Positions 25,547-58,000 of a stretch of DNA of 64,000 nucleotides are shown piece by piece. This DNA comes from Blasia pusilla. Taxonomy: Eukaryota. Position numbers and translations under genes: made by a program. Position 1 is the stretch's first letter. Every line of letters starts with the position of its first letter. Where the stretch lies: the NCBI GenBank assembly GCA_050084515.1, contig CM114271.1:36394001-36458000 (forward strand), in the 5' to 3' direction. The notes beneath the pieces are model-generated. The model did no database searches. It worked only from the letters and a program-made list of their open reading frames with translations, and was not told the origin of the DNA.

Positions 25547-28500
25547 TGTCACATTTGAGTAGCTGATAGGTCAAGATCTATCGTGGATAGGGAGTAGGAT
25601 CCAGCGGACTATCTTGAGTGTAACTTTGTCCCACGGTTTCGGATGAGGTTGAGGATAGGTCCATTGTGTCAGGAACGTCGTTTCTGAGAACTTTCCTATT
25701 GAGGTCTTTCACAGCCGGGTGACTTGTTAATCAGGTCACCCGCCACTAGTAACTTGTGCGTGCAGGTTACCAAGGGGATGGCTATTTTTGGGAGAAGAGC
25801 CTTTTGGCTCTTCCCACCACTATATAAGAGAGGAAGATGGCTTTCCTAAGCCATCTTTCTCATGTTGGGCTGTTGGAGCACCTCTCTTGTATGTGTGTGA
25901 GATAGGACTAGGATGCTAGCGTCCGAATTCCTTGATAGCACAGGGTGGATAAGGCTCGATATGTCGATGTAGATTGAAGAGTGGAGTTTTAGGCTAGGTG
26001 TGTCGTTTTTACTACTCTTTATTTTTATATGAGAAAGATACGGGTGCGGGCCATTTTGGATCCCCCCATATGATGTGGTTGGGAGCGCCATGGTTGGCAA
26101 CGTCCCAACGTGGTACACACCGGATGTGGTAGGTATGGACGTGGTTAGTCAGACGGACATAGTGAGGCAAGGTCGACTTGGTAGAGGCGCGGGTAATGTC
26201 GTAGATGGGCTGACATGGTTGAGTTCAGACGGAGTTGAGTAAGATTACGGGATGCGTGTGGGGATGGGCGGAGAGGTTTGCGTGACATGATATTTTTTGG
26301 GCTTGAGTGGGATTTGCGAGTAGGGTTTCACGCTGATCTTGTGGGAGGTTTGACATGTGTGCAAGGAGGTGGTTGTGCTATGGAGGTTGTCATGCCACAC
26401 GTATGGAGTGAGTGTTGAGAGTACGTAGGTTGGAGGGCGTAATCAGGTTACCCATTCGAGTCCCTTTTCCCGCACTTGTCGTGTGTGATTGAGAGTGTTG
26501 GGTATCAGGTAGTAGGTGATGCTAGATGGATGCACTGATGGTGACGAGTGTAGACACTTTTCATGTGTAGCATGTTGGTGGATCTACGGCGGTTGCCGAG
26601 TAGGGGTCGCGTGTATGACTTGAGAGGGTGTCGCTAGGTTAGGTGAGTTAGTTGGGATGCTCATGGTGAGCCCGAGTGTTGAGTGTACGTGAGGTCGGGT
26701 GTGTCATCACGGGATTGACGTTAGCATAGATAAGCTAGTGAGGATTGTGAGAGACTCTCGGTGAGTCTAAGTTCTTGAGCGGGTGAGACAAGGTTGTCAT
26801 CACGGCGTTCTTCCAGGGTTCGAAAGAACAGGGTTGTGCGAGCAGTAGTAGTGGTGTGACACAGAGTGGACTGAGATATCGAAGGGTTACGAGTGAGGAG
26901 CTACCTCGACATCCATCCGTGGCTGAATCATCATAACTAGAGACCGTGTTTGGTGACGAGATCGTAGACGGAGGCAGTATCACTTGGCAGGAGATGGACA
27001 ACATGGGCCATCGAGGATTACGTAGTTTCTCAGGTGCAGTGGGCATCATCGACTTAGATGATTTTATCCAGGAGTTTGACACGTGGTGCAACTTCCAGGA
27101 GATACGAACCCCGACACACTTCAGCCCTTTCATGGCATGGAAGGGGTTGTTCCAGCACTTGGAGGGTCCTCCGATGGATGATTATATGGAGTTTTGATCA
27201 CTTTATTCAGTAGAGATTGATGCCTGGAGGATATATTGGGCTCTACGGTATGTGTCCACTAGTGGTCGCGAGGTATATGATGGGATCATGAGAGGAGAGA
27301 GACCCACCCCATGAGCCCGGAGACTAGATGGAGAGGAGGGCGTGAGGCGATGTGGCGAGAGACCTCTGGTGGTAGAGGGTGGCACAGTGGAGTTCTTCCG
27401 AGCTTGGGGAAGAGCTACAGTATGCACTGTGACAAGTGAAGAGTCTACAAGATTTTTAGCAATGATCGGGTGAGAGTGAGAGAGGCATTCACGCCCATGA
27501 GGAGGTGATCATTTCTATGTATGGAGGAGTGAGGCGTAAGTTAGTCCAAGATTGGATGCGGGGTTCTAGACCGAGAACACAGAGGAGAGTCCAAGATACG
27601 GTGGTCGATTCACAAATGGGCCCACATTGAAGGTGGTCTTTGAGTTGTTAGCGTATTGAGCTCAACATGAGTGTAGGTAGTGACCGCTAGATTTTCTGAG
27701 AGTCGAGACGGGTTGACCCCATAGGTGCCACAACGAGCACCAATACCACGGAGTGGGCCAGTGTGCCTAGAGAGAAGGCGGGTACCGTGAGCCTATGAGG
27801 CAACGGACATATGTTGTGTGGAGGGGTAGGCAGAGAGAGCGCCCACAACATGGGAGAGGACCATGAGCGCCTCGATTGCGAGTGCGGGTGTCTATTGCCA
27901 TAGATATGGTCACACTAGGGATAGATGTTTTGACCTTTGCCAAGAGGCACGCCCAGAGGTAGGCCGAGGGGGGGCGGTCATCTAGAGGAGGTCGGGAGTT
28001 CTTCTTAGGCGTGGTGGTTGTGGGAGATGGAGCAGAGCACCACAACCGACACTTCTCTCACATCGATCGGTTGGTGGGGAGGATTTTGCCATGAAGATGA
28101 TGTCGGGAAAGGCGGAGCCAGCGGCTAGTGTGGCTCTAGCTTCTGGACCGGGTGAGGATCTTGCATTAAACTCGAGGTTGAGGTGGTCGGTGATGACTTG
28201 GGGTGTTGAGAGGCAACCGAGCCCGAGAGGTGGAGTTGAGATCCTACGTTAGGTCATTCACATTGAGCTAGAGTATTTCGCTTGGTTAGTCCGATGGAGA
28301 CAAGATCGGTCGCCCTACTTGATTTGGGGGTGATATTAGGGAAGGCGGCGTGTCTAGCGTTGGGGTTACGGAAGGCCGACATTGAGCCTTGTCCCTTCCA
28401 GATACACACCTCTATTGGGGGTGTATCACCCACGTAGTATATGACTTGAGAGGAGATAGTTGTCAGAGTCCATCCAGAGCGTGCGACCGATAGTGCTATG

Positions 28501-29361
28501 GTACGCACACGTGCGATTACGACACCAGTTGAGTCGTACGATGTGTTGGTGGGGAGTGCATTGTTATATCCCCTAGGATTCATCCTTGACTTATGGGAGG
28601 AGATCGTTTCTTATCGGTCAGGGTGGCGATCAGGTGACGGGCGGATGAGTAAGTTATCCATGCAGTTCGCAAGACGAGGTGGTCGAGCACGAAATGGGTC
28701 TATGACCACGTTGGCAGCTTTCACTTGTAGTGTTAGCTGGCCATGAGAGTTGTTGGAGGGGAACGCACATGCGGAGGATGTTGTAGTAGCGGATAGTCCC
28801 ACGGAGAGACACGCCAAGGCGGGTGTCTCTTCCCATGTTGGCGAGACCTCTTCATCATTGTGGGATACAACTCGAGAGCTACAGAGGAGTGTCGAAGACC
28901 TCGTGAGGCAGGCATGGAGTCATGCCTTTATCCTAGAGCAGCGAGAGTCAAGTGGCAATCGGGCTCCTGGAGTGAAGACGTTGACCCCATTGGATACCAC
29001 ACCCGTTGTGTGGCAGTGTCCAGAGGAGGGTGTTAGGGTGTTAGATCTCATAGGAGGGATTAGCACCGGATTGGCTTAATATAGCAGGCACGCATACGGA
29101 TGCATCAGTACCTTTATATGGAGAGAGATGAGACCACACAATGAGTGTCACTACGTCACGTAGCGAGATTGGTCCAGAGGTATCATGAGTTGTTGTCGGT
29201 ATCTGCAGTATGGGGATATTAGCACACACTACCCGCCAACATCTCTTTGGTGGGGACGTAGTGTCTGGATAGAGTTGGCACCATTCATTTGGTGATTGTT
29301 GGATGGCCATGTCAGGGTCATTCATCAACTGGCCGAGGATTTAGATTGCAGGATCCGAGGT

Positions 29362-29364
<3 letters not shown>
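25547..29364 (+). mobile_element. Degenerate Ty3/Gypsy element, family 2, 5' part: LTR 'B' segment (~25547-26027), gag, protease and start of a DNMT3-like domain
   Basis: LTR segment homologous to 32917-33377. Gag DLDDFIQEFDTWC..LFQHLEGPPMDDY; protease-region YDVLVG; VLDLIGGISTGLA and IVGWPCQGH..LQDPRS. Homologous at protein level to the element at 43365-52643. Confidence 0.85.

Positions 29365-29441
<77 letters not shown>
29365..29441. repeat. (AG)n microsatellite, ~38 units
   Basis: Directly visible. Confidence 0.98.
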
Positions 29442-31205: not shown

Positions 31206-31779
31206 GGGAAAAAAATAATCTAGGGTCTCGGCACTGAGTCCCATCTTTGTGAAAATTTACATAATTTATGGATGTTTGGATATTAGCTTTAATATCTATT
31301 TATGACTAGATTAAACACTACTTATATTGTTAATATTATGTGTTGAAATTATTCCATATTTTTGATGCCCTATTAAGTGATAGAAAATTTACAATATTTA
31401 GTGGATTCCTTTATTAATTATCCAAGGAATTTTTTAATTAATCAATTAATTTTTCATATTTTAATGACATATTTTCATTGTACCTCCTAAGGCTGGTTTT
31501 GTGGGCATATCGATATTTTTTTATTTAATATTTTCCAAATTATATTTTCTAGCATACATGTGTGAGAAAATGACTCAGATCAGTGAATGAGTCACGAGAT
31601 ATGAGTAGAACATGACTAAGTCATTTCTAATACTATTTGAGTTGTTATATTATGAGTGATTTGGTTTTCCAGGTCATAAAAAATGACTGAACCAATAGAG
31701 TTACACTTTGAGTCATTTTGTGCATAAGTCATTCTAAGTCAAGTCATAAAACCATAGTTTTCTTCTAGTGCCTCGGAGC

Positions 31780-39799: not shown

Positions 39800-42700
39800 A
39801 TGATGAGTGTTGGTGGATCGTCACTAAACAGGGAGAGACGGCCACTTGGTATTATTACAAATATGCCAATTTCGCAACAAAGTTCGGGAAGACATATTGA
39901 AGTATCGAAAAATACCTCCCCGATGTAAGAACCTTTGCTTAGGGTAGGGACTTAAGCACCTTATTTCCATTTCAACGATGATGCCTTACATACCATTTTC
40001 TCCACAATATATTTTTCTCATGCATTAAACCCAATTTTTGCATAGACTTCCTCTTCCATCAAATCCTACGGATTTGCGTGACTTCCGAAAATTGATACGT
40101 GCGAATGCACAACACAAAAGGCGTGTCCGTCGCAAGGAAATCTTAGCTCAACAAACACGTCTCGAAGATGAACTCCGACCTGAAACATCTCCAACGTAAG
40201 TTTACTACATCGACGTTCATTTAGCCTGTCCAATTTCCCACAAAATATTGACTTTTCATTTAATTTTGTAAGCTTTTAACATTCATGTGTTGTTCCAGAC
40301 TTCCAATCCCATTGAATCCTGTCAATATACGTGACTTTCGGAAGGTTCTACGTGGCGAAGCCCAAAAAAGAAAGCGTGCTATTCGGGCTGATAGAATGGA
40401 AGCTCTCAAAGAAAGAAAGAGGAATTACCATCGAGAGTATAGAAAAAGAAGGAAAGGGCTTAATGGTCAAGTTCAGCCAGAGAGTTTTCGTCGACCGCTC
40501 TTCCTATTCAAGTTCAAGATGAAGTTGTCGACAATTCGTCGACCACTCTTCCTATTCCTGTTCCAGATGAAGTTTTCAACAATTCGTTGACTTTTGCCCA
40601 ACTTGGGGATGAATCAAGGTCAAGAGTAGATGCCATATCTCCTAATGGAGTTTTGTTATCTCCACAACGTGCCACTGTACCAAACACTTCTATAATTTGT
40701 GCATCGTCTACCCTTGATAGAGTTGTAAGATTAAATACAACTCTCAATCTTGCAAGGAGGCCAAATTTTCAAGAAAGTGATATTCGAAAGTTGCGATTAC
40801 AAAGGAGTTTGAATCGCATCATGGTAAATCATACATTAGGTTCTATGATAGAGATATGTCCCTCATGCCGTGCTTTGCATTGGAAATATGAAGTGGTCAA
40901 AGGTACTAAGTTTGGTGACTCACCATATGGCATGTGTTGTGGCCATGGAAGAATATACTACCTCTCTTGAGATCATCTCCTCCATTTCTGGAATCCTTGA
41001 TTTCGGGTGTTGGTCCTAGAAGCGTTCATTTTCTTACACATGCTCGAGCTTATAATTTGGCACTTCAACTTGCATCTACCCGGGTACATGTAAACGAACA
41101 AATTGGTGGCACTGGACACTTTAGGGTCCAAGGCGGGATCTATCATTCCATTGGACCTTTATATCCTGATATTGGGGGACATCCTCAATTTGCTCAACTA
41201 TACATCCATGATACTGCAAATGAATTGGAAAATCGTGCTAGAGTTATGTCTACATCTTCTATTCTTAATATGGATAGTTTGAAAGGTCTCCAAGACATGT
41301 TATATGAATGCAATCCATATGTGAAGATCTTTCGTCATATGGCATATGAAGCAAGTGATCTTAATGTGCGGATTATCCTCAAGGCAAGTAAGAGAGGACT
41401 TGACTTGACTTGCAAGGCGTTATAACTTACCAATTGCATCTGAAGTTGCTGCTATTTTGCCGGGTGATGGAAGTGAACATGTTGAGCATCGTGATATAAT
41501 TGTACGACTACATGGAGGAGGAGTCAAACGTATATTCGACCTCAATGAAGCATATATTCCCTTACACTTTGTTTTGTTATTTATCTATGGTGAAGCAGGT
41601 TGGCATCCTGGAATACCCTTTGGGCGAATTGAAGGTTGTAGGGAATCTCGACAATTGGGCCACATTATTCATGGAGAGGAGGGACATCCTGAACGTGCAG
41701 ATGATTGCATGGATGAGGACATAGTTTATGGTGATATTGTTGAGGAAAGAAGAACAAAATGTGTTACGGCCTTGCAATTTGCATGTTTTCGACTTCAAAC
41801 TCGCGTTGGAGGAGAAGATGACAATCGCTTATTGCGGCTTCGTCGACTTACTCAAGAATATATGGTTGACCTCTATGCCACTGTGGAAATGCAACGATTA
41901 TCATGGGTGCGCTTAAATCAGAAGGAGTTGAGGGCTGAATTATATCAAGGTGTAAAGGATGCCATGCATCGACAAGATGCGGATAGCCGAAGGCTTGGGA
42001 AACAAATTATATTACCTTCTTCTTTTATTGGAGGGCCACGTCATATGCATCAATTGTATCAGAATGCAATGGCAATTGTACAACATTTTGGGAAGCCTGA
42101 CTACTTCTTAACCATGACATGCAATCCAAAGTGGGAGGAGATTACTTCAGCCCTATTACCGGGCCAATCAGCTGCAGACCGACCAGATTTGGTTGTGCGG
42201 GTTTTTGAGAAGAAAAAGAAGGAGTTGTTACGACTTATCATCAAGAAGCAGATATTAGGCCGAGTTGTAGGATGCATCCATGTGGTGGAATTCCAAAAAA
42301 GAGGATTACCGCATGTGCATGTCCTTATTATTTTAGGTCGTGAGGATAAACCACGTACCACAAGTGATTATGATCGTATTATTCCAGCTGAAATCCCTTA
42401 TCAATCTACCCATCCAAGGTTGTATTCTACCGTTGCTAATTGCATGGTTCACGGTCCATGTGGACCATTAAATCCAAATGCTCTGTGTATGGATAAGGAA
42501 ACAAGAAAATGTACAAAAGGCTATCCTAAAGCTTTTGCGGCCAACACTACCGAAACAGAAGATGGTTATCCGATATATCGTAGGTAAGGACCCTTTTATT
42601 TTTTAGGCATATTTATTCATGATTCCTTCTAATACATTCATTCATGATTCATTACGATTGTTATTGTATTTTTGTAGATTGGAGAATGGAAGGGCGATAA

Positions 42701-43364
42701 TTAAGAGCGAACATTCATTGGATAATTGTTGGGTTGTACCTTACAATCCGATGTTATGCACCCTATTTGATTGTCACATTAATTTGGAGATTACAAGTAG
42801 TGTTTCTGCTGTCAAGTACTTATACAAATATGTTTATAAAGGATCTGATGTCGTGTCATTTAAGTTGTTAAAGCATATGGATACATCCAATGTAATCAAA
42901 GTTATTGACGAGACAACGTCATATCTTGATGCGAGGTATGATTTTATGGATTGACTTCTCTGATGCATTATATTTTATTTCTCAACTTCATGTAATTATG
43001 GAAGAGTCCTTCTCATGTAATTTCTCACTCAAATACTTGGAATTCTCATTATTCCAGATATATATCTTCTTCGGAAGCATGTTGGCGTCTCTTTAAGTTT
43101 AGTCTACATGTTGAACTTCCAAGTATCGTACGACTAGCAATCCATCTTCCAGAACAACAATTAGTCTACTTCAATGATGTTGACGCTCCTAGAGATATTT
43201 TGCAACTGAAAAGAGAGACAACATTGACCCAATGGTTTGCGACCAATCTATCTGACTCTAGTGCTCGAAAATATCTATACATAGATTTTCCTTTTTATTA
43301 TCGTTGGAGTAACAAGAGATGGATTCGTAGGGTACAAAAACAAAATGGTTGTGGCCATCCCATT
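39800..43364 (+). pseudogene. Helitron RepHel gene, 5' half (Zn-finger, Helitron-like N, HUH Rep domain), intron-containing, frameshifted
   Basis: CPSCRALHW..CCGHG; PQFAQLYIHD; ILPSSFIGGPRHM; FLTMTCNPKW; VEFQKRGLPHVHVL (HUH); YLYKYVYKG (Y2). Cut at ...CGHPI by the Gypsy insertion. Confidence 0.93.
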
Positions 43365-43942
43365 TGTCGTGCGAATCCCCATCGTCATACAACATACATC
43401 GCTGACATACCATACTCACATACATACATAACATAGACGAGAGTATCCACAAACGCAAGTGTACCACAATTGAAACCGTGAAAGACCATGTCATAAAACA
43501 CGTTTACAATCACATACAATCGAGCCAAACCCACTCCACGATGGGAGAATCTAGGTCTAAGCTTATGGAAACACCATAGCCAAGAGCTCTACTCACTACC
43601 AAGGCTAACTCCCAACGCAATGAGGCTCAACTCAAAGAAGTGATCGTTCTTTGAGGGCAAGCCACCTTATATCCTCCAACCTAAGAGCGGGCCCCACTGG
43701 GAAAGTCACCCCAAGTGAGTAACCCACAACCCTATGTATGGAACCGCATCTCTACCAAGCCACTACGGTCCTACATAAGTAATGGCCTCTACCAAAGACT
43801 ATATACTCTACGACATAATCCGTATGGTCATGACAAATTTGTCGGCGAATCCCCATCGTCATACAACATACATCACGACATACCATACTCACATACATAC
43901 ATAACATAGACGCAGAGTATCCACAAACGCAAGTGTACCACA
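43365..43942 (-). repeat. 3' terminal repeat block: A (43942-43840), AATT, B (43835-43471), AT, A (43468-43365)
   Basis: The two A copies (~103 bp) are near-identical; B (~365 bp) matches 52278-52643. PPT AGAAGGGGGCGAGT (43956-43943) abuts the first A. Confidence 0.92.
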
Positions 43943-44120
43943 ACTCGCCCCCTTCTGGCGGTTAGGTCCTCTAACTCCCAAGTAGCCCTATACATCTACT
44001 ACATGCTATACACCTTCTTGGGTGCCCGAATCAGAAGGCCGGGTGCTAGGTTGCCCCATCGTTAGTCGCACATCCGTAATCCATATCATGCAAAGATCAA
44101 GTCATCTACCTCTCCTAAGT

Positions 44121-44257
44121 ACATCGAGGACAAACCCACCTTCCAAAAGAGGAACAACATCCAAACGTGAGTCAAACACATCATGTGCCAACCCCTAGAA
44201 CACCGATCACACACCAACATACGGGTGCGTTACAAGAGACCCACACAACATGCACCT
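44121..44257 (-). pseudogene. PHD finger at the C-terminus of pol (frameshifted)
   Basis: Reconstructed RCMLCG...MLVCDRCSRGWHMMCLT..LDVVP..GRWVCPRC (C4HC3 spacing). Confidence 0.8.
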
Positions 44258-44449
44258 CAAGCTAGCACATATCATGGCTAAGCTTGGGTCAATGAACCAT
44301 CCACATTTGGAAGATGACATGGCGCACAATTACGCACATGGTCCTTCCAAACAACTCCATCACGACCCTCCAACATGAGAACTCCGAAGCTAACACCTCA
44401 CGCACTCGTAAAATAGTGCGGCCTGCCGTCACATCCAACGTTGTCGGGC

Positions 44450-45420
44450 ACCGCTGCAAATAGACATAGTCCCCACATGGAACCTACGAATCGATGGTCG
44501 ATAACCTCCACTTCGAATGGTTGCATACCGCAACCTATCCCTCGTGTTGAGCAATGGCAAGATTCTCAAAGGTCGTTGGTATAACTCTCCGAAAGAGCTC
44601 CGCCCGCGAGAACACACTCTCATCCATATCTCTCGGGTCATCAAGGTCCACCACCTCACTAGACTCGACTAATTGCTCTTTGGCAAGTCCGGATCTCGGC
44701 CGATAACAGTAAAATAAGGTGAGAAGGAAGCCAAGGATGCTTGGCGATCGAACCTATACCCCATGGCTAACCATGGCAACCGAATATCCGGTCTCCAAGA
44801 TGCCCTTCAGAGGCCATACTTGCGCAATGCCCTCTTCACCGCCTGAACCACACGCTCAACCAAACCATCCGCCTCTGGATGATCTCGAGACGTGGTCCGA
44901 TGATCAATCAACGCCTTGTCACACAAGACCTGAAACTCACCCAAACTCAGACTCGGTCGGTCAAGACTTCAATTTGGTGCACCAAAATGACTAAGCACTC
45001 TATCCAGAACGCATACGCCGTTCCTCACTTGCATTGTCCGTAATGCCACCAACTCAATCCACTTGGAGAAGTGCTCCACCATCACCAACACATATCGATG
45101 ATGTCGCATAGTCAATGGTAACGGTCCCCAAAGTCCACACTCCAACGGTAACCCAACCCCATAATAGGCAAGGGGTGTAATTGTGGTATAGGGGCATTAA
45201 ATGATGCCTCACCAGTCACAAACCATACAACGTGACACCAATCGCTGCACCGAGTATGCATGCCACGCCACCAATATCGCCAAGGAGTAAGCTATACGCA
45301 CGCTTTACCCCAAAATGTCCCAACTCCTCATGGGCTTGTCGCACAATGCGCTCTCTCGAGCCAAATGTGGCACTACTCGTACTCTACCATCCTCCCACAT
45401 ACGGAGAATATGTGTTCCCT
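44450..45420 (-). pseudogene. Retroviral-type integrase (frameshifted)
   Basis: Fragments HEELGHFGVKR.YSL, WSVDF.GPLPL..HRYVLVMVEHFSKWIELVAL, DH.TTSRDHPEADG, AQHEDRLRYA. Confidence 0.85.
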
Positions 45421-45699
45421 CCAATCGATACCTCTTAGCACGTTGAAGAACACGGTCTCGCTCCTTGGCACTCACTATGCCTGGCACCCTACTGGTCCGT
45501 AGGAACTCCAACACCAACGCATCATCATGAATATCACGCTGATCCGCACCACCATCTCCAACCTTAGATCAAGGGTCGACCATCTACCCTCGACTAGAGT
45601 AAGATATCATGTGGTCCTCCATACTAGAGTCCACCTAACCAACATAAAAGGCGGATGCATGCCAACCTGGCACCATCTCCTCATCAACCTCGCCATGCC

Positions 45700-46960
45700 A
45701 TCTAGCCCCAGCTTGTATCCTCTTGGCTAGTACATGGGTTCCTACTCAACCCATCAAGATCAAGGTTGGCAACCAGGTCTATGTACCACTTGGAAGTCAT
45801 ACTCTTGTAAGATAAGAGCCCACCGTGCAAGCTTCCCCTGTAAGCTTGTCCGACTCCATCAACCACTTGAGCGGTGGTGATCAAGAATAAGGGTAAATCG
45901 TGTGCCAAACAAGTAACACCTAAAGTGTGCTCTGACCCACACTCTCGCCAAGCACTCTCCCTCATATGAACTATAGCGCGACTCCGTTGCATTATTCGAA
46001 CGACTTGCATAGGCCACCACAAACTCCATGTGCTCATCATCATGTTGTGTCAACACCGCTCCAAGTCCCAACCTACTCCAATCAATGTGTAACTGAAATG
46101 GGCGCCCTCTGATAGGTCTCCTCAAGATAGGCGCCGCCACCAATTGGGCCTTAAGCTCCCCAAAAGCTCTCTCCTGATCATCTCCCCAATGCCACTCTTG
46201 ATCTGATTTCAGCAATTGGTTCAAAGGCTTTGCCATAGCACTAAATCCCTTCACATACCTCCGATAGTAGTTCGCCAATCCCATGAATGCTCGAACTCTA
46301 CTCACATCTACCGGACGCGGAATAAGTGCAATAGCGTCCACCTTTGCTTGCTGAACTCCCAAACCACCTGGATAGATCACATGACCCAAGTACTCAACAT
46401 CCTCATGGAAGAACTTACACTTTCCTGGATGCAAACGTAGACCATGAGCTTTCAACCGCTCAAACACCATCTGCAAATGTATCCGATGCTCCTCCACCGT
46501 GTTATCGAACACCAAGATATCATCAATGTAACACCGAACAAAATCCAACCTTGCTAGGATCCCGCCCATCACTCTTTGAAACTCGGCAGGTGCATTCTTC
46601 AACCCAAAGGGTAAGAATTCCCATTGGTACAAACAATCCTTGCCATGAGAGTTGACACCCCAAAATGTTGTCTTGGCCTTGTCACTCTCCCGAATTGGCA
46701 ATTGATGGTATCCTGCCCGAAGATCCAAAATCTGAAAATCTTTGCCTGTCCCACCACATCAAAGATCTCTCAGTGTAGGCATGGCATACCTATCGGCCTT
46801 AGTTTGCCGATTGATAGGACGGTAATCTCCACACATCCGCCTATCCGTAGTTGCCATGCATATCCTTTTTAGCAGCATGACAAAGGGCGATGCATACTCT
46901 CCATGCGACAACTCCACTAATCCGGCCTCCAAAAGGTCCAACGCCCTACTCAATCAGGTC
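45700..46960 (-). pseudogene. Reverse transcriptase + RNase H (Ty3/Gypsy type)
   Basis: RRMCGDYRPIN, DLRAGYHQL, LPFGLKNAPAEFQR, CYIDDIL, YLGHVI, FQLHIDWS..GLGAVL, YASR..ESRYSSYEGE. Confidence 0.95.
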
Positions 46961-47449
46961 CCTCTCCATATCACTATATTGGTAGGGACGACGGAAGTTT
47001 GGCGTATCACTAGCCAAATCAATCCGTGATATCTGTGGTCCAACCAAAGAACCCAACTCCTTCATGCTAAAGGCAAAACAACTCCTATAAGCACGTAGGA
47101 ACGTGTCAGCGCCGTTTCTCACCTCCCGTAAGCTTGGGCCCAAGTAATGGCTCCCAAGTCTCCTCCACTTTGGCATACTAGAGGGAGAGGACGATGCCAT
47201 TGGCTACACGCAACCCCTCACAAGATGATACACCCTTAGCTACACCATCATCCGAGCAAATAACTCCTCCACCAAAGATGAGCAACCAACTCCACATGCC
47301 CAACCATTACATCCCATTTACTCCAAGGATGCAAAATACTACTCTCTCGCCCCACCGATGCCTCTATCGCCCCGGTAGCCATCGAGCTCATTACAAGGGG
47401 TGGAAGACCTGACATAGTCCGAAGTCGACGTATTTGCTCGGCCATACCA

Positions 47450-48410
47450 AGACTCAAAATCCAAGTCAAACAATTCAGGTCCATGGCCTGACCCAACACA
47501 TGACGTCGTGAAGACTCAGAAATAGAAGCAACCGTTGTCACGCCAGTAGTAAATCCCATCGCACGCTCTCTCTCATCATCAGCGTTAGGCTCCACCAACG
47601 CCGCACATGAGAATCCCATACAAGCCCGGACCACCTTCCCGTAGGCATGACGCGGGAAAACTCACAAATGTGGGTAGTGCCATCCTAGGCTGGCCCACAC
47701 GGTTCACCACTGCCATGGGTGACCGATCAATAACCCTCACCACTTGAGAAAGTCGCCCAGTATCCAAGATACTATCCACTGTAAGGCGAGGATCCCGTTA
47801 ATCGCATCATATGCTCGACGAGAACCTCCCTAGGCAACAAGTTTGTCCACCACAAGCGTGGGCGATGTGCACGCTGAGCCAACTTCGCTGCAGATCCAAC
47901 AACACCTGGTCCAATCCAAGACCGCACCTCATGAACACTCGCCATCATCCGGGTCCGAGTCTCACCTAACAATGGAACATTCTCGAATGTAAGCTAGAGC
48001 ACGTGCTTGATGAGCTCAAGATGTCGTAACACCCGTAACATCTCCCAAAACAATCGAGACCTAGGGTCATGTAATCCCTCACCATGACCAAAGACGTGTA
48101 TGACCGACATGGCCATCCAAAGCAATCACCAAATCCACAGGACCAACCCTCTCAAGGTCCTGCGCTCAACAATGCAATGTGTGATGGTAAAGCACGCTGG
48201 TACCCACAAATAGCCGATGGCGGCAACAACTCAGATATCTCCGCATCAATCGACCAATATGTCGGGATGAGACTCTCGGGCCGTCTCATCTTGCTCCACA
48301 TACACGTATCTCCAAGACAGAATACCGCCCGCACATCTTGCCGCCAAACCGGTGCTAATCCCACCAAAGAGATCTAACACACAAATGCCCTCCGGCGGAT
48401 AACGCCATAC
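47450..48410 (-). pseudogene. DNMT3-like C5 cytosine methyltransferase domain inside pol (frameshifted)
   Basis: Motif I VLDLFGGI; IV DLVIA.GWPC (48107-48118); GL.DPRSRLFWEMLRVL; VI ENV (47976-47984); VIII AHRPRLWWTNLLP; IX/X ERERAMGFTTGVT...RRHVLGQAMDL. Confidence 0.88.
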
Positions 48411-48849
48411 AATGGGTGTAGTATCCAAAGGGGATAACCTAATCGGGCTGTAGTAGGAGTCCGTGGGGCCTCCTCTTCCTTGTGAGGTATAAGACCTCAC
48501 ACCAAGCCTCTGCACTAGGCGATCAGCCTCCTACCGTAGTGTACCGCTTTGAACTCCAAAGTGGCACATCCAACGATGAGGATGCCACCGCTGCAAAAAT
48601 AGGGACCTCTCTCTACCTCCTCATGCAGGAGAATCCAGCGTAAACATTACCTTCCAAAAAGTCTCCGGCCAAGTGACTACTCCACTAAAACCAACCACAG
48701 ATGCTAACACCTTTGTTGGGGAAGACCCTCCGGTCGAGCCCCGAAATAAATCTCACAGAACTTGGCTCATACGTCCATCCTCGGATCGCCAACCTGGTCT
48801 ATAAGACGTTGTCTCACCCAAGAATCCATCTGAAAACCCATCGGGTACA

Positions 48850-51300
48850 CATCGCTCCTCCAACTAGTACATCATACGACTCGGCCGATGTGACTATCGA
48901 GATACTCCCAACCGGAGCTATCGATCGCATGATCTGGTCTCAAATGCATAAAAAACTCTCTCGTGTCATGAATTGAGACCTATCATTGGCTCCTCCAAGT
49001 GATGTTTGAATCTGGAATGGGCAAGGCTCAAGCTCGACCTCCGAATACCCAAACCAATACATGCCGCTTTCCCAACATCAAAGGTCGGGCACTGAGTCTA
49101 ACAAGACTCTATCTGGTCTATACACTGTCTGTAGGACTCACCAATCGGAAGATCCCACTCCGGTTGTCCAACATACATACACCAGGTGTAAGCCTCTCAC
49201 GATCAATGGCTGGCCGGGTGGTAATGCATCCATCTTCGCCGCGCCGCCGCCAAGTAGCACCGGTACTCAATGCTACTCCCGACATAGAAGGTCGCTCCAC
49301 CGCAACATCCTCATCCACCTCAACACGTGCAAGAAACACCCCACGTTCACACAATGTGGTCGCTAGCTGAAATACAGAGCTAAGTCAACTCCTAGAGCCA
49401 TCGCCCGTGGGTTAAAACAATGGGGATCCCAACACCGGTTGCCATCCGCACATCGCACTTTCGATCTTCGCATCCATGTCTACTACACGCGATGTAGATG
49501 CCTCAGTCCCCACTGTCGGCTCAATAGGCTGCGTAGGAACCATGGATGGAGTCCTAAGCACCTCAGACAACAAGAATGACTGGGGAAGCCTAGCCTGCCT
49601 CCCAGCCTCACCCCTCTGTGGGTCCAACTCCACAAGAGCACCACGTGGCTCGACGCTTTCGAGTGGCTCCTCTCGAATCGCAGGTGATGCCTCAATGTGT
49701 GTGCCGACTCGCCATATAAGAGAGATCATCCCTCCATAAGAGGTGGAAGCCCTCGCTCCCAAACCGATCGATCTATGCCGCATACCACCCATAGTAGCCA
49801 ACTCTCGCTCCAATCTGCTCAATCCTGGCAGCCATAGCTGACTCTGTCGTAGTGGTAGGGGTAGCCACCGTAGGCTCTCCAACCACTGGTCCACCTCTAC
49901 CACCCCTACCACCTCTACCACCTCGGCCTCTCGGAGCTACTCCACCACGGCCACGGCCTGATCTCAACTCTGGATGAAGATCAAAGCAACGCTCTCAAGG
50001 ATGACCTAGTCTCCCGCAATGATCACACTGAGTTGGGGCCGACTGAGGCCCATCCTCCAAAGTCCGTCTCCCATCCTCTTGGGGACAAAACTTCCTAACA
50101 TGATCACCTCCACATGTCCAACATGATCGCCCTTTGCTGGGGCAGCAAATGAAGGCAATGGTCTCTGCACAAATGTCCCTCTAGGACTTGACTGAGGTCG
50201 CGTGTACCCCCCACGACTCCCACTACTACTACCACCACCACTACTACAAGACTGTGAGGTGGGCGGCTGAACACGAGAAGTAGTAGTTGTATCCCTACTG
50301 AATGCGGATGTCACCACTCTCTCCTTCACCATGTTAAGCTCAATCTTCTCAGATAGAGCAAACACATGGGTCAATGTGGGTGAATCATCACTCATAAGAG
50401 TAGCATCACGTACCCTACGGCGCAAATCTCTGTCCAAGATCCCATACCAAAACTGGATTGCCTGATCCTCAATCACACCCTGGGTAATTGAAATCAAGCA
50501 TCGCATATGCGTGTATGCCTCACGAAGACTCTCACCAGTCTTTCGCTCAAAGTCCTGAAGATTCCTCAACTTCTCCGTCTTCACTCCTTGATAGTTCTTC
50601 TTCAACCTCTTGAAGAACTCTGCAACCGGGCTAAACGATGGTGGGGCACTAGTACCTCCACTAGTACCCCACTAGTACCTCCACTGGTACCCCCACTCCG
50701 ACTCGCACTGCACCACTCGGCGTCGGGCCGGGCCGGGCATAGTAGGAGCACTACTACCAATACCACCATGGGTGATAGACACATAGCCGGAGACCAATAT
50801 TGTCTCCATGCCTCAATCTCAGCAACATGGTCCTTCCTAAACTCATGGTAATCATCCATGGGTGGTCCTTCCAAGTTTGAAACAACCCCTTCCAAGCCAA
50901 GAAGGGTGTAAACAACGCATGCTCCGCAACATCCGCATATCACACCACGTATCAAACTCCTGCATGAAGTCCTCCAACTCAATGGTACCCACTTTGCACC
51001 GAGTATCGTCGTGGGCCCTTCATGGCCCCATATCCACCGTCCATGTCCCAAATCAATGGAGCGCAACACTCGATAACAACGTAGAAGACTCGGTGTTTGG
51101 AACACCTCGCCCTCCTCCTCTTCATCAACCGTCGGAAGTGGAAAAAGTAGCCGATACCTAAATCCACTCTGTGTGAAACCACCATCGTCCGCACCACGGT
51201 CCCCAACCAGACCACCCGACAAACTCGTGATGACCAACGCCGATGCCGCATCACCACCAAATTACCCAAGTGACGTCGATGTCGCTCTACTATTGTAGCT
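48850..51300 (-). pseudogene. gag (with zinc-knuckle remnants) and aspartic protease
   Basis: LEGPPMDDYHEF, ERKTGESLREAY, RG-rich tract, RVLLDS.ARPLMLGK (protease active site, ~49070-49110), YDVLVG. Confidence 0.8.
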
Positions 51301-52277
51301 CTACTAGCTATGGGTGTAGGCAACCTAACCTCTCATCACCACAAGAAGACTCCCACGGTCTACTGGTCATCACTCCAGCCTCACTATCAGTAGCACACAG
51401 GAGTAACACTACTATGGAAATCAACGTCAACCCTAACAATGGGCGCGCAAGCAAGAAGCACAATGGAGGGGATCCAAACACAGGAAATCCAACGACAACC
51501 CTCCAATCGCAAATGGAAATCAAGGTTACACAATCCACCAAACGTGGTGCCCTCTGAATCCACAAAACCCACCACACAATTCTAACGCAATAGCTACTCC
51601 GCCGCGGGTCGATGACGTGCTAGTCAAACTCGCACCATCTGAAAATATCACCTGCATGGAGAGGCTACACCGTACTATGCGCTAGAGGTACATCAACCAA
51701 AAACCTGAGATGCATAAAGTGCCTAACACCTCTCCGAACAGCACCAAATGAGCTACAATAGTCTGTACACTGGCATAGTTAAGAACTCAGCAGTTAAGCG
51801 TCCTCCAAACAGAATAGCCCAAAGATGGGTGACCAGTTATGCAAAACTCAAATCGTGCAAAAATTGCCTCACGCCCAAGCAAGCAAGCTTGCTTGCTTGC
51901 TCCTTGCTCCTTGCTCCTTACTCCGCCTCTCACGCCCACTCGCCCCGAGCTACCACGAGTTGCCTCGAAGCCTCGAAGCCTCGAAGCCTCAAAACCTCAA
52001 AACACCGAGACATGCCCCTATCGCCCCGTTCGCCACGCTTCGCCATGCTTCGCTATGGAGAGAGGTCCAACCAGGGCGCCCCCAACGGGATAGGCGTCTC
52101 CAACAATGAACAGGTCACCAACCAACCAGCCCCTCCGATCCGCTGTCCACCATAGCCAAACCTTGAGCTAGTCCGCGAAACTGGTGCGAACATCCACAGC
52201 TGAGTACACAATCAGCCCTAACCAGATCCTACTGATCTACAATCGAAGCTACCATCGATCTACTCCAGTTCTTTGAG

Positions 52278-52643
52278 TGAAATCCGTGAAAGACCTATTG
52301 TCATAAAACACGTTTACAATCACATACAATCGAGCCAAACCCACTCCACGATGGGAGAATCTAGGTCGAAGCTTGCGGGAAACACCATAGCCAAGAGCTC
52401 TACTCACTACCAAGGCTAACTCCCAACGCAACAGGCTCAACTCAAAGAACTGACTGTTCTTTGAGGGCAAGCCACCTTATATCCTCCAACCTAAGAGCGG
52501 GCCCTACTGGGAAAGTCACCCCCAAGTGAGTAACCCCCAACCCTATGTATGGAACCGCATCTCTACCAAACCACTACGGTCCTACATAAGGAATGGCCTC
52601 TACCAGCACTATACTCTACAACATAATCCGTATGGTCATGACA
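52278..52643 (-). repeat. 5' terminal repeat: B segment only, containing the TATA box (52481-52476)
   Basis: Near-identical to 43471-43835; lacks the A segment. Confidence 0.92.
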
Positions 52644-55003
52644 CATTGGTCGCTTATACCTTACTCATCCAGGTAAATGCTCACAACTTCTTTGTACATA
52701 ATTCCTTTTATATTCCACCTCTAAAGTAGTGTATCTATATGTTGGGATAAACTCATTTAGTTTAATTCCTCATAGGTGAAGGAGAACGTCATTGGTTGAG
52801 ATTACTTCTCCATCATGTTCGAGGAGCAACTATCTATGAATGTTTGAGAACTGTTAATGGGATATTATGTCCAACATTCAAGGAGGCTTCTATCCAATTG
52901 GGACTTCTTGAGGATGATAGGGAAGTGTTCTCTTGCTTTGAAGAAGCTTCTACAATTCGTACAGGTTCTTCACTTCGTCGCCTATTTGCAATTATTCTAG
53001 CGTACAACACACCTGCTCAACCTGCAACACTTTGGAGTCAACTCTTGGCTCCAATGGTAGAAGATCTCTTATATGAACGGCGTCTGGTAAGAATTCATTA
53101 ATACCCTTGCATATTTTTTTTATTCTTAATAGTATCTTCTATTGAGCATTCAACAGTCTAACAAATTTTGGGTTATCATCTTATTTTGTAGAAAATTGGA
53201 ATTCCTAATCTTCTCGTTGAAGATGCTATGGTTAATACTGCATTGTTGGAAGTCCATTATTATTTACAAGATCAAGGAAAAAGACTGTCAGACTTTCCAG
53301 ACATGCCCCAACCTGGCTTCCAACGACTTCAATTAAATTTATATTTGGAGGAACAAGAGCTTTTGTATGATACGGAAGAACTATTTGAGCAAGTGCAATT
53401 AGGAGAAGCATTTTTAAATGAAGGACAACGGATTATTTGGGATGCTATAGATGATGAGTTTGATAAAATATGCTTGGATGCTCCACCATCTCCAAAAGTC
53501 TTTTTCATTGATAGCCCAGGTGGAACGGGAAAAACATTTTTATATAATCTTCTTCTTGCAAGTGTAAGGAGTGCAAGAGGTATAGCTTTGGCTGTGGCGT
53601 CATCTGGAATAGCTGCTCTATTGTTAGACGGAGGACGTACTGCACATTCGCGATTCAAAATCCCCATAAATCTTCATGAGAGCTCTACTTGCAAACAAGT
53701 GCCAATTCTGGTGATGCAAAATTTTTAATTTCCTCCAATTCTGGTGGCACAAGTTCTAATTTACTCCCCTTTTCTTACTATAGTTTGTCGGTTAATAGTG
53801 ATGGAGCGCGCTTAATCCGTGATGCAATGCTTATTATATGGGATGAAGCTCCTATGGCTCATCGTCACCCATTTGAGGCTGTAAATCGGACTTTACAAGA
53901 TATTATGGGAGTTATTTTTTATGAACACCGACAATTACCATTTGGTGGAAAACTTATGGTATTTGGTGGTGATTTTCGTCAAGTGTTGCATGTTGTTCGT
54001 CATGGGGATCGGCCGCAAATCATCCAAGCCACCATAAAGAGGTCATCTCTTTGGTCTAATGTAAAGGTCATGAAGTTGACTACAAACATGCGAGTTCAGA
54101 CGTTGGAAGGTCACTTGCGTAGTGAACAACAAGCTTTTGCTGATTGGTTATTAGAAGTGGGAGAGGGTCGCGTACCTTTGCATCCACATTTGGGAGAAAA
54201 TTTTATACAATTACCATCTGAAATTGTTACTAGAAGTAATAAGATATGTGATCTTATTGATTTGATATATCGAAATTTTCCATCCGAAGTCAATGACATT
54301 GATTTCTTGAGAGATACGGCAATTTTGACTCTAAGAAATCAAGATGTAGATGACATAAATGCAAGCATAATGTCACGGTTTCCAAGAGAGATAATCCTTT
54401 TAACTTTTATAAAAGAGTTATTCAATTATAAGTTTAGATATTAATATTACCGTTTCTTACAAACTCATTATATTTTGTGTACAGGAGCAAGTTTACCTCA
54501 GCGTCGACTCTATTCCAAACGAGGGGATGACTCATAGATATCCAACTGAATTTTTGAACACATGCTTGCCTTCAGGACTTCCTCCGCACCGATTGTGTTT
54601 GAAGATTGGGGGACCAATCATGCTGTTACGAAATATGAATGGAGCACATGGACAAGCAAACGGGACAAGATTGGTGATTCATGGATTTATGCAACATTGC
54701 ATAGATGCTGAAATTGTCACAGGGAAAAATATTGGAGATCGAATTTTTGTTCCACGTATCCCATTGATTGCATCACATTCAGATTTGCCATTTGATTTAC
54801 GTAGGTTTCAATTCCCTATTTGACCGGCTTTTGCTATGACTATCAATAAGTCCCAAGGTCAAACTTTGCAAAAGGTGGGCATTTACTTGCCTACTCCAAT
54901 ATTTTCTCATGGCCAATTGTATGTACCATTATCTAGAGTAGGGAAGAGAAGTTCTATCCAGATTATAATTGGAAGCGAAGATTACTATATAAAAAATTCT
55001 TAA
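52644..55003 (+). pseudogene. Helitron RepHel gene, 3' half (PIF1 helicase), intron-containing, premature stop at 54821-54823
   Basis: SPGGTGKT (Walker A), ASSGIAA, GGRTAHSRFKIP, IIWDEAPM, FGGDFRQ, NGTRL, FPI*PAFAMTINKSQGQT, FSHGQLYV.LSRV. Confidence 0.93.
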
Positions 55004-55022: not shown

Positions 55023-58000
55023 TTAGATCAAATTTTTTTTTCCTTTCGACGGGTCCGGGCGACTCGGCCGGTTATCAGAAAGAAACGACTGTTTGGCCGT
55101 CTTCTCCGCGTCCTTGGCCGGTTCGGAGATGTAAGAAATCCACGAGTGATGGTTCTGGTTGGGAATAACTTTCTCCACTACCATCGTCGACAGTCGCTTT
55201 GACGATTCGAGATCGATCAGAAGGTCGGCTGCGTAGGTGGGCCTCAGTCCGATCACATTAAGGTATTTTAGGTTTGGGAGTCGGGAAAGTTTAGGTCTTT
55301 CGCCATTCTCTTCTGTCAGTTGTGTGCACCAACTCATCGACAGGCGCCTGAGCGATTTCAAATTCTCGATCTCTTTCGGCAGACTCTGTAGTTGGAAACA
55401 GTGATTCATGTCCAAATTCTGCAGGTTTTTCAGTCTCCCGATCCCTCTGGGCAGATTTCGAAGTTTCCAGCAAGCCAAGAGGTTGAGTTTTTGGAGAGTC
55501 TCTAGCTCGCAAATCTCGGTTGGTAGACACTCCAAGGAGGTGCACCATTGAAGGTCCAGGTGCTTCAACTTGTGGAAGATCTGCATTTGTGACGGGAGCC
55601 TTTCGAGATTGCTACAGAAGTCCAGACTGATGAGGCTGACGTTACTGAAAGCGACTATGCTCGATGGCAGACATGTCATACTGTGGCAGTCGTTGATGAT
55701 AAGCTCCTTCAAAGCTAGACACTCCGCAGTATCCTTAGCTCTGGGATCGGTGAAGCGGCCATGGGGCTCTTCAAGCACCTGGCCTACCAACTTCGGGCAG
55801 GACAACAGCTCCAGTGTTGTCAAATTCTCGAGCTTGTAAACGAATTCGGGTATGTATTCCAGATCTGCGCTAAGTTGGATGGATAGTTTCGAAAGGGTTG
55901 CATTCGGTCGTTGAATTGGTAAGTCGTATAGATTATCGCAAGCTTGCAGATGCAGAGAAGTTATGGATTCCGATCGAAAGATGGATGGAGCAGCTTGCCT
56001 GAGGTTTGTGCATCCAATCAAAGAAAGGCTCGCTAAATGACGAGGCACCTGCGTCACAAGCGTTCGAGTTAGTGTTAACAGAGGAGTCCTTACAGCTATA
56101 AATTGTTCATCGCATTCACATCTATAATGTGAATGCGATAAACATTCACATCGATAATGTGAATGCGATAAACATTCACATCCATAATGTGGATCTTATC
56201 CGGATCCCGGATGTATAGCGAAGTGTAGATACACTTAGTCTAAGGGTAGAGATGGGCAGTCCGTAATTCCATGAGCATCCAAACCCTCATTAACCCTCAA
56301 CATTTCCTCCGCTTGAAGAATTGGACTCTGCTGTCGAATTCAGCCCACCTACTACATGTGTGATGAACAAATTCACAAAGAACGAGTGCTTTTGTATAGT
56401 AGAAAACTGACCTAGATTGACGAGTGCACACCTTCCTATTTCGACTGTTCAAACACGTTACCATTTGTAGCCCTGTTGTCAATTCCTGAATGTATGCTTA
56501 CGTAATCTGCAATGTGTTCGTCGATAAAAAATAGACCTCGTCTTTAGCGGTATGAGACGGATATTTCGTACCTGAAAAGCTGCAACTCCGAAGCTAAGGC
56601 CTGACAGGACCAAAACACTGAGATTTTCAAGATGCTCTGATCGGAACGGCAAGGACTGCGGTCGTGACTCTGAAGCTGGATTGCCGGTGCCAAAGTGGAG
56701 GAAACGGAGATCAGCCAGAGATCTGAAACTAGACCCGACCACCTCTGTTTTCTCGATAACGACGTAGCGCAACCCTTCAAGGTTTTCCATCCATTTCATT
56801 TCAAAAGGATTCTCGCAGTCTATTAGGCACAAGCTTCGGCAACTTCGCTTGACCTGAAATTCAAGAGATATCCGATCGGTCTCGAGTTAGTGTTTATTGT
56901 GTAGAGCTTGCAACGCGCACCTTCTTGTAAAATTAACGCTGCCAGCCCAGAAATGCTTTCACATGCACACTCAACGGTTGCAATCTTCAAAACGTATCCC
57001 AGTGCTTCCTCATGGGCAGAGTAGACGAGAAATGAGGGAGTCGAGGACCAGCACTGTAAATAGATGGATTCCACGGCAGTACTGTTCGCGATCTCGAGGA
57101 GGAATGGCCATCCGATTGATCTCCACCGTAGAATTGGGTGCAGGACTAAAATATATCTCGGTAACTGTTGCAAATTATGCGTGAGAATAGTGACAGACTG
57201 CGTTTGCAGATGACGTTTTCCAGTCTCTCAGTCCAGCACTCCAGAGTAATTGAATGTACGTACCCGGTTTCTAAGCTCCGTAAGCTGTTGAGGCATCGGG
57301 GACTCGACCGCATGTATATGGTGATCCCGATGGAGCTTACGACCGCTCTCAAGCATCTCGGGAGCAGCGAGCAGCACCTTCATCTTCCAAGGACCTGATC
57401 CGTAATTTCTAGTGATCTCAGCAAGGCGTGTCAAGGTTTGGGTTCCAATAATCTCCTTAGAGAGTATCACACGCTTATCTTTGAGTTCTTTGAGTACATG
57501 TCTCCCGAGTATGTTTTCGACTGTCCCCCAACTCCAGCCATTAAACACGTTTGCGATGTCTCCCATGGCTTCTTGGAGAAGTGATGATTCCAGTTTCCTA
57601 TTGAAGAGCAGTCCCATTTTCTCCACCAATCGGATATAAGCAACCTCCTGGGCTCGAGCGACCTCTTCCTTCACTCGATCCTCTACTTGTGTGAGAGTTG
57701 GTCCCCAGTCACGTTTAGCAATATCCTCGTCCACCGCAGCCAACTCTTCGCAAATGCGCTGCCAGACTGCCACCGGACGATCAATTTCGAAGTACTTCCC
57801 GAAGAAAAGGAGTAGCACAGGAAGACCCTCACACCTTGAGACCAGATCCTGCCAAGTGGTGCTCCGTGTGGATTCATCCGTGTGCCCTGGACCTTTGGTG
57901 TACTTCGAGATTAGCTCCTTGGCCTCGTAAAACTGCAGGCGGTCGACATGTAGGGGTTTGTAGACGCACGGGGAATCGGGAAGGTCTCGAAAGATGGCTT

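Follow-up and report, generated by a model that had tools for sequence, protein, structure and literature searches.

A Ty3/Gypsy-type retrotransposon copy with a DNMT3-like methyltransferase domain in Blasia pusilla

The element and its methyltransferase domain

We analysed 64,000 nucleotides of the Blasia pusilla assembly GCA_050084515.1 (contig CM114271.1, positions 36,394,001 to 36,458,000 of the forward strand), referred to here as the window. It contains a 9.3 kb retrotransposon copy on the minus strand (43365-52643), lying inside a plus-strand Helitron. Part of this copy had been taken, in a sequence-only reading, for a complete but frameshifted DNMT3-like catalytic domain between protease and reverse transcriptase (RT). 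Our analysis makes it highly probable that the element is a Ty3/Gypsy-type copy encoding Gag, protease and a full DNMT3-type methyltransferase, with a TAG stop, RT, RNase H and a DDE integrase downstream in the family.

A purpose-written frameshift-aware alignment was run with the Marchantia protein P0011 against window positions 48750-47150. Residues 864-1253 of P0011 matched a DNMT3-like C5 cytosine methyltransferase domain on the minus strand at 48436-47278, with 268 of 377 aligned positions identical (71%). The path required 12 frame changes (at 48277, 48230, 48160, 48119, 48106, 48090, 48013, 47985, 47818, 47798, 47619 and 47599) and contained no stop codon. The alignment read motifs I, IV, VI, VIII, IX and X on the minus strand in that linear order, as had been proposed with PC in motif IV and ENV in motif VI. 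The range first assigned to the domain, 47450-48410, spans motifs I to X, and homology extends somewhat past both of its ends. A tblastn search with P0011 returned linked segments in the window with E = 4e-110, and the match is therefore far beyond chance.

Over the longer path, P0011 residues 1-1253 aligned along 51044-47278 with 799 of 1210 positions identical, 42 frame changes and two stops. The Ty3/Gypsy order of Gag with CCHC knuckles, protease, RT, RNase H and integrase was found in the window, and the full order also occurs in the intact protein P0062. P0011 aligned over 49700-48400 at 198 of 314 identical positions, with 17 frame changes and one stop, and PF13650 is assigned to related proteins in precomputed domain lists. 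With this retropepsin-like stretch on one side and RVT_1 and RNase H on the other, the methyltransferase does lie between protease and RT, as first read. The integrase piece alone scored 17.9 bits with the Pfam family rve, under the cutoff of 32.6 bits. Approximately 7 kb of the element aligned at 76-78% to the metagenome loci L005, L043 and L017. As assembled, the window copy is unable to make any of its proteins.

Table 1 Features of the window, with the search or alignment results that define them.
Feature	Position	Strand	Remarks
Target-site duplication, left copy	43361..43364		CATT on + strand; flanks both ends
Repeat Y2, 3' terminal	43365..43469	-	96% to Y1; element end ..CGCACGACA
Repeat X2	43471..43835	-	starts TGTCATGACC in coding orientation; 352/379 columns identical to X1, 9 gap letters
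Spacer between Y1 and X2	43836..43839	-	AATT; 2 nt in related copies
Repeat Y1	43840..43943	-	preceded by G-rich purine tract at 43944-43960, polypurine-tract-like
Integrase region, broken	44798..45570	-	P0004 residues 1103-1241 match 45208-44798 at 68%; P0062 alignment
RT and RNase H, 299-codon open frame	45859..46758	-	RVT_1 1.4e-26; RT_RNaseH_2 1.1e-28
In-frame TAG closing the gag-protease-methyltransferase frame	47204..47206	-	directly before PMASSS.. leader
Methyltransferase domain	47278..48436	-	broken by 12-13 frame changes; motifs I to X at ~48370-47480
Motif I	in methyltransferase domain	-	VLDLFGGISTGLAA
Motif IV	in methyltransferase domain	-	GWPC
Motif VI	in methyltransferase domain	-	ENV
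Motif VIII	in methyltransferase domain	-	RAHRPRLWWTN
Motif IX	in methyltransferase domain	-	ERERAMGF
Motif X	in methyltransferase domain	-	LGQAMDLNC
Retropepsin-like protease region	48800..49250	-	RVLLD/S.., frameshifted; P0011 alignment
Gag, two CCHC zinc knuckles (~50130-49995)	49960..51044	-	P0011 residue 1 aligns at 51044
Repeat X1, 5' terminal	52278..52643	-	93% to X2
Target-site duplication, right copy	52644..52647		CATT; flanks both ends
Second, older, truncated related copy	28273..29366	+	protease and first half of methyltransferase to GWPCQG; ends in (GA)n run
Helitron_like_N	41409-42587	+	1.5e-59
PIF1 helicase	53192-54444	+	3e-39
GH18 chitinase-like protein	12771-14168	-	1.6e-68
Leucine-rich-repeat frame	55023-56195	-	apparently intact
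NB-ARC-like ATPase frame	57228-58727	-	apparently intact

The second related copy matched P0011 at 188 of 378 positions, with one frame change and seven stops. It forms the end of a plus-strand fragment at 26994-29366 (gag, protease and half of the methyltransferase), and a further plus-strand fragment at 31776-32447 carries protease only. The two fragments are 73.5% identical (28271-28941 versus 31909-32597), with other repeats nested between them.

The coding strand was G-rich and C-poor (G 0.28-0.32, C 0.18-0.19) in window positions 44000-52000 and in loci L005, L008, L010, L016, L017 and L043. The same copies showed CpG observed/expected ratios of 0.53-0.74 with TG and CA in excess. A mirror-image base skew appeared at 26-34 kb of the window, where copies occupy the opposite strand.

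Relatives, fold and selection

The 137-codon C-terminal piece of the window domain was used as query for longer proteins, and 44 of 236 candidates matched at E <= 0.001, the best at 73% identity. Several of these 44 are annotated as C-5 methylases, and every named one is from a bryophyte. Six of ten intact relatives scored above the curated PF00145 cutoff of 22 bits, at 28.1-40.8 bits. Motif spacing was fixed among the relatives (86 residues from I to IV, 46 from IV to VI, 42 from VI to VIII and 122 from VIII to X). Over 75 sequences, G137, W138, C140 and Q141 of motif IV, E183 and N184 of motif VI, and R223 and R225 of motif VIII were conserved in at least 90%.

A 14-sequence family profile compared with solved chains gave DNMT3A (1.6e-18), DNMT3C (2.8e-15), DNMT3B (4e-15) and plant DRM (1.9e-9), with M.HaeIII (1e-5) and DNMT2 (4e-3) weaker. 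The 75-sequence profile gave 6.2e-27 for DNMT3A, 5.9e-24 for DNMT3C, 9e-24 for DNMT3B and 3e-13 for DRM, with M.HhaI (8e-9) and DNMT2 (2e-5) again weaker. The ranking was alike with both: DNMT3A, DNMT3C/3B, plant DRM, bacterial M.HhaI/M.HaeIII and DNMT2. No DNMT1 or chromomethylase chain was matched at E <= 1 by either profile.

An AlphaFold2 model of the relative P0022, built from the 75-sequence alignment, had a predicted local distance difference test score (pLDDT) of 94.3 and a predicted template modelling score (pTM) of 0.93. Every Foldseek match listed for this model was a DNMT3A, DNMT3B or DNMT3C catalytic domain, with a best E of 5e-19, target-normalised template modelling (TM) scores of 0.81-0.85, root-mean-square deviations of 3.0-3.7 Å and 20-23% identity. 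An earlier model from 10 sequences was poor (pLDDT 51.5), and its Foldseek matches to DNMT3 reached TM 0.35-0.45. The domain in this family is of the DNMT3 fold class, and the proposal of a complete DNMT3-like domain with a methyltransferase fold is upheld by the PF00145 scores of the relatives, the profile ranking and the superposition of P0022 on DNMT3A/B.

Animal DNMT3A, DNMT3B and DNMT3C (PDB 6f57, 6w89, 6u91, 8tci and others) were thus the top matches both by profile (6e-27) and by structure. They share the motif order I-X with the element domain, whose motifs VIII and IX are worded much as in DNMT3A. Identity to them is low, the element's motif IV reads GWPCQG, and the element domain has approximately 85 extra residues. 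Animal DNMT3 carries PWWP and ADD readers, whereas the element domain has Gag and protease upstream instead; no companion reader domain (PWWP/ADD as in animals, DUF as in land plants) was present among the Pfam domains of the relatives. Plant DRM (PDB 4onj, 7l4c) formed the second-best solved group, at 3e-13 to 5e-10 with the 75-sequence profile. Its motif order is rearranged, unlike that of the element domain, and it aligned to profile positions 96-226 only.

A profile search over 1.84 billion representatives returned 7171 proteins at E <= 0.001, 325 of which reached E <= 1e-30. Many were polyproteins of 1000-3456 residues, and the best 150 representatives were all of retroelement type. Two layouts were found. 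The methyltransferase either precedes RT, as in the window and P0062, or is placed between RNase H and integrase, in which case a PHD finger follows the integrase. Among fetched proteins with both the domain and an RT motif, nine had it before RT, 61 after RT, and eight were ambiguous. Named relatives with the domain before RT, at 64-81% identity, came from Marchantia polymorpha (14 models), M. paleacea, Calypogeia fissa, Riccia sorocarpa and three Sphagnum species. More distant named matches (34-42% identity, profile E 1e-45 to 1e-69) were from Haematococcus and from records labelled Chrzof1 and Mesvir1, which we take to be Chromochloris and Mesostigma, respectively. Haematococcus and Chrzof1 have the RNase H/integrase layout, and Mesvir1 shows PF00145 alone. 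Gypsy polyproteins with the order RNase H, methyltransferase, integrase and PHD were P0054, P0061, P0065, P0068, P0073, P0081, P0091, P0123 and P0133, whose named members are from green algae. Their domain is homologous but occupies another place in the polyprotein and stands far from the bryophyte clade in the tree.

That tree was built with FastTree, without an outgroup and with local support values, from 91 of 211 rows (all named rows, the window, eight locus rows and every third unnamed row). The window fell in a 24-row clade (97%) together with a Marchantia clade and a Sphagnum-plus-metagenome clade, and this clade in turn was nested among 27 bryophyte rows with 100% local support. Judged from the element alone, the host of the window would thus probably be a bryophyte other than those named among the relatives. 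One relative, P0296, with 49% identity to P0022, carries the label of a bacterial metagenome bin (Candidatus Obscuribacterales), probably because a eukaryotic contig was wrongly assigned in binning.

Selection was estimated by the Nei-Gojobori method on codon alignments in P0022 coordinates. The ratio of nonsynonymous to synonymous divergence (dN/dS) for the domain, between the window and 31 metagenome copies, was 0.23-0.35 at dS 0.62-0.82, which departs from neutral evolution, the outcome that the sequence-only reading had named as counting against it. The window RT was compared with 22 loci, of which 19 had usable dS, and its median dN/dS was 0.15 (0.12-0.18). When the metagenome copies were compared with one another, the RT median was 0.36 (169 pairs), and 73-88% of private changes in these copies were G>A or C>T, which is the mark of deamination of methylated cytosines. 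A higher dN/dS within the clade is as expected if much of the divergence is decay after insertion. The domain is conserved under purifying selection, and the codon comparisons indicate that selection has kept the enzyme in the bryophyte relatives.

Several points weigh against this account of the domain. None of six open window pieces taken singly matched PF00145 at E <= 1, and a PDB sequence search with three window pieces matched no methyltransferase at E <= 10, giving chance rows only. The stop-to-stop frames in 47248-48530 are short, with 61 to 137 codons in three frames. The motif reading by itself would thus have failed the hidden Markov model test; the PF00145 cutoff that it had named as a check is exceeded by six of the ten intact relatives and by none of the window pieces. 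The proof lies with those relatives, and the fold and profile evidence alike comes from them and not from the window copy. The DNMT3-type likeness, which these comparisons support well, is a ranking against solved structures and not a tree. Finally, the median dN/dS of the methyltransferase among the metagenome copies themselves was 0.55 (458 pairs), which alone is no evidence of constraint.

Frame changes of the window copy

The copy had been called frameshifted, by decay or by assembly error, and frame changes are indeed numerous: against P0022 the domain alone required 13, again with no stop, in addition to the 42 counted with P0011 over gag, protease and methyltransferase. The pattern of frame changes and stops and the comparison with other contigs lean to assembly error, and we regard it as somewhat probable that most of the roughly 100 small indels of the window copy are errors of long-read assembly in a many-copy repeat.

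Compared with six related loci, the window copy had 125 private indel events in 7,450 aligned bases (43800-51250), mostly deletions of one or two bases, and 18 of the 125 were multiples of three. In a contig from a public run of the same organism, the part matching 47711-48234 differs from the window by 21 substitutions and 18 gap letters, where the indel alignment predicts 17 gap letters. Two extra bases at 48119, just before GWPC, were absent from 2814.7 of 2832.2 depth in run X8, and also from the single covering contigs in runs X13 and X4. Run X1 was the best match to the window (0.61 of words) and showed many one-base omissions at 10-25% of depth.

The frameshifts might instead be real, the copy having died long ago and decayed in place, mainly by small deletions. 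We consider this the less probable explanation, with a chance of roughly one in three, and several observations speak for it or against assembly error. The terminal repeats X1 and X2 are 93% identical (18 substitutions in 379 columns) and Y1 and Y2 96%, so that the insertion is not recent, and X1 and X2 themselves differ by nine gap letters. Deletions were not linked to homopolymers (19 of 53 versus 45% expected), and 12 of the 53 single-base deletions were flanked as C_G against a background of 4.5% (p = 3e-6). An RT stretch of 857 bases (46731-45874) is free of window-specific indels, with a probability of 6e-7 under uniform error, calculated post hoc. The contigs compared may also derive from sister copies. 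Long-read errors at methylated CHG sites, or uneven polishing, are our guesses at what produced this indel pattern.

Natural decay in the family appears to take another form, however. The domain in the 31 short-read metagenome copies carries zero to three frame changes (none in 21 of 31) and zero to eight stops, and these copies and the second window copy have accumulated stops with few frame changes, whereas the window domain has no stops. Private changes of the short-read copies are mainly G>A or C>T, while the window copy shows approximately one indel per substitution against its nearest contigs. The one-base omissions of run X1 are missing from the other three runs, which fits noisy long reads. 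Assembly error remains our preferred explanation of the frame changes.

The three host-gene loci of Table 1 (GH18, leucine-rich-repeat and NB-ARC-like) have frames without breaks over 390-499 codons, unlike the element, and are apparently intact.

Stop codon, terminal repeats and possible role of the enzyme

The stop that closes the gag-protease-methyltransferase frame is conserved. Thirteen loci were compared (L004 to L017 and L036 to L038). In 10 Sphagnum-clade loci a TAG or TAA followed by CAA CCC closes the methyltransferase frame exactly 100 codons past LGQAMD, and in three loci of a subfamily only 48-49% identical, TAG CAA TCA or TAG CAG TTA stands at the equivalent codon. A search for an RT-leader motif beyond the stop found it, in the same frame, in 10 loci and left it unmatched in the other three. 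Seven protein models in the alignment end at one identical column. In the bryophyte clade the methyltransferase thus ends the upstream Gag-protease frame and is not simply part of Pol; with the conserved stop after it, the enzyme belongs to the Gag-protease product. The sequence UAG-CAR-YYA is a read-through signal of plant viruses. The stop context resembles this signal and looks like a programmed read-through site. Pol would then be reached by read-through of the stop, and the Gag-protease-methyltransferase product would be more abundant than the read-through product and may travel with the particle.

The ends of the element are unusual for a Gypsy-type copy in their order. In coding orientation the parts run X1, internal part, Y1, spacer, X2 and Y2, with X of approximately 365 bp and Y of approximately 105 bp. 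Two full long terminal repeats (LTRs) were not present in the window copy or in L043, where a single X forms the 5' end and Y-X-Y the 3' end; L005 and L014 show the same split layout as far as those loci extend. The element starts with TGTCATGACC and ends with CGCACGACA, with a four-base direct repeat on both flanks. Both copies with two ends available have TG..CA ends: the window copy reads TGTC...GACA with the duplication AATG, and L043 (terminal repeats at 5991-6334 and 14637-15205) has the same ends with the duplication CATA. The ends and target duplications point to insertion of the integrase type. Removing the element and one copy of the duplication restored the Helitron frame (..CGHPI|GRLYLTHP), which continues into an intron-like gtaaat. 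The interrupted Helitron-type gene occupies 40464-43364 and 52648-54444 on the plus strand, with an apparent intron from gtaaat at ~52678.

Y1 is immediately preceded by a G-rich purine tract in the window copy as well as in L043 and L005. At the Y-NN-X joint the spacer is GC in L005 and L014, AT in L032 and TC in L043, and with the GC spacer the joint forms a perfect 10-base palindrome, GACAGCTGTC. Ngaro/PAT-like DIRS elements have split direct repeats in the order A, internal part, B-A-B, and their internal B-A joint represents the joined element ends. The repeat order of the window family is like this one; the family differs in having a DDE integrase, TG..CA ends and four-base target duplications, none of which is expected in DIRS-type elements. 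In its layout the integrated copy resembles a circle with two LTRs that has been opened at one of its joints. Contig joints 52643/43365 and 43469/52279 were considered as candidate circles or tandems and are explained by ordinary Y-X and X-Y junctions of other copies.

A Dnmt3 domain in a Gypsy element has been described for Klebsormidium nitens (de Mendoza et al. 2018, PMC5890265), where the acquisition is placed "in the K. nitens lineage". That paper's survey table includes Physcomitrella, Selaginella and Klebsormidium and does not include Marchantia or Sphagnum. KnitGypsy-Dnmt3 resembles the window element in being Gypsy-type with an unrearranged Dnmt3-type domain in the polyprotein, and its repeats are described as "the same as that of a DIRS retrotransposon" alongside a Gypsy domain set, as we find here. 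Purifying selection is reported there too (Ka/Ks < 0.2, against 0.23-0.35 for the window domain). The parallel with a charophyte retroelement DNMT3 that the sequence-only reading had suggested is therefore close, as far as the available text of PMC5890265 goes. The hosts differ, a charophyte on one side and bryophytes on the other; these common features are a likeness and no proof of common descent, and no Klebsormidium-named protein was among the relatives returned by the protein searches. SymbioDIRS-Dnmt3 of Symbiodinium is likewise a retrotransposon-borne Dnmt3-type enzyme, and it is the sole case with shown de novo CG methylation in yeast (PMC5890265). It belongs to a DIRS element with another recombinase class in another host kingdom and was, according to those authors, acquired independently. 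PMC12344493 and 10.64898/2026.05.21.726589 cite "streptophytes (Gypsy-DNMT3)" and, in their available text, add no new hosts. Our full-text literature search, with most subscription journals outside its coverage, found no paper naming Gypsy-DNMT3 elements in bryophytes, only PMC5890265 and papers citing it. The bryophyte clade adds a host group not yet described in the searched literature to the Klebsormidium-type Gypsy-DNMT3 elements.

The predicted enzyme may methylate the element's own newly made DNA, a role to which we give slightly less than an even chance. A new copy methylated in this way would look like host-marked DNA, or would be protected. Methylation of nascent cDNA or circles, for self-marking or mimicry, had been suggested in the sequence-only reading, and it is a published hypothesis for the Klebsormidium and Symbiodinium elements (Discussion of PMC5890265). 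Weighing against it, the Klebsormidium domain gave no methylation in yeast, in its only published assay, which the authors call inconclusive. The domain might be kept for another role, namely host DNA methylation near insertions, RNA methylation, or non-catalytic DNA binding or tethering, and the negative yeast result would agree with this; RNA methylation and host-side effects are named as options in the same text. The domain is also longer than the DNMT3A catalytic domain by the 85 or so residues noted above (368 versus ~283). Yet the catalytic motifs are invariant or nearly so over the 75 sequences, which fits a working enzyme, and the nearest solved relatives are DNA enzymes and not the tRNA enzyme DNMT2, so that we consider another role rather unlikely. 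The notion that the stretch derives from a host DNMT3 gene, as a fragment captured by or nested in this one element and foreign to its own polyprotein, has in its favour only that retrotransposons in general pick up host fragments, and it is refuted for practical purposes: the domain occupies one and the same position, sharing a reading frame with gag and protease, in four bryophyte genera and many metagenome contigs, the whole 7 kb is alignable to L005, L043 and L017, and the second, diverged window copy has the domain as well.

Returning to a methyltransferase that is an integral part of the element, we tentatively propose, at a probability well short of even, that Gypsy-DNMT3 elements form an old and diverse green-lineage group spanning chlorophytes, early streptophyte algae, liverworts and peat mosses and still present in multiple copies in bryophytes. 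With the methyltransferase at the C-terminus of the Gag-protease product, before a leaky-stop-like TAG-CAR-YYA, the enzyme would be made in Gag-like and not Pol-like amounts. The integrated copy, shaped like a two-LTR circle that has been opened where its ends meet in a palindrome, would suggest replication via circles, which the enzyme could mark.

A transposon with its own de novo methyltransferase is a paradox, cytosine methylation being the host's main means of transposon silencing. Within the literature searched, dinoflagellates and one charophyte are so far the only documented hosts of such elements. Elements of this kind are now found in land plants, in several liverwort genera and Sphagnum, with their domain under purifying selection. 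The conserved stop before RT and the integrase-type ends on DIRS-like repeats, neither of which appears in the available text of PMC5890265, bear on the timing and place of enzyme action. It also becomes possible to test the published view that the acquisition was lineage-specific, and Marchantia, for which genetics and methylome tools are established, gives experimental access to the question of what such an enzyme does for its element.

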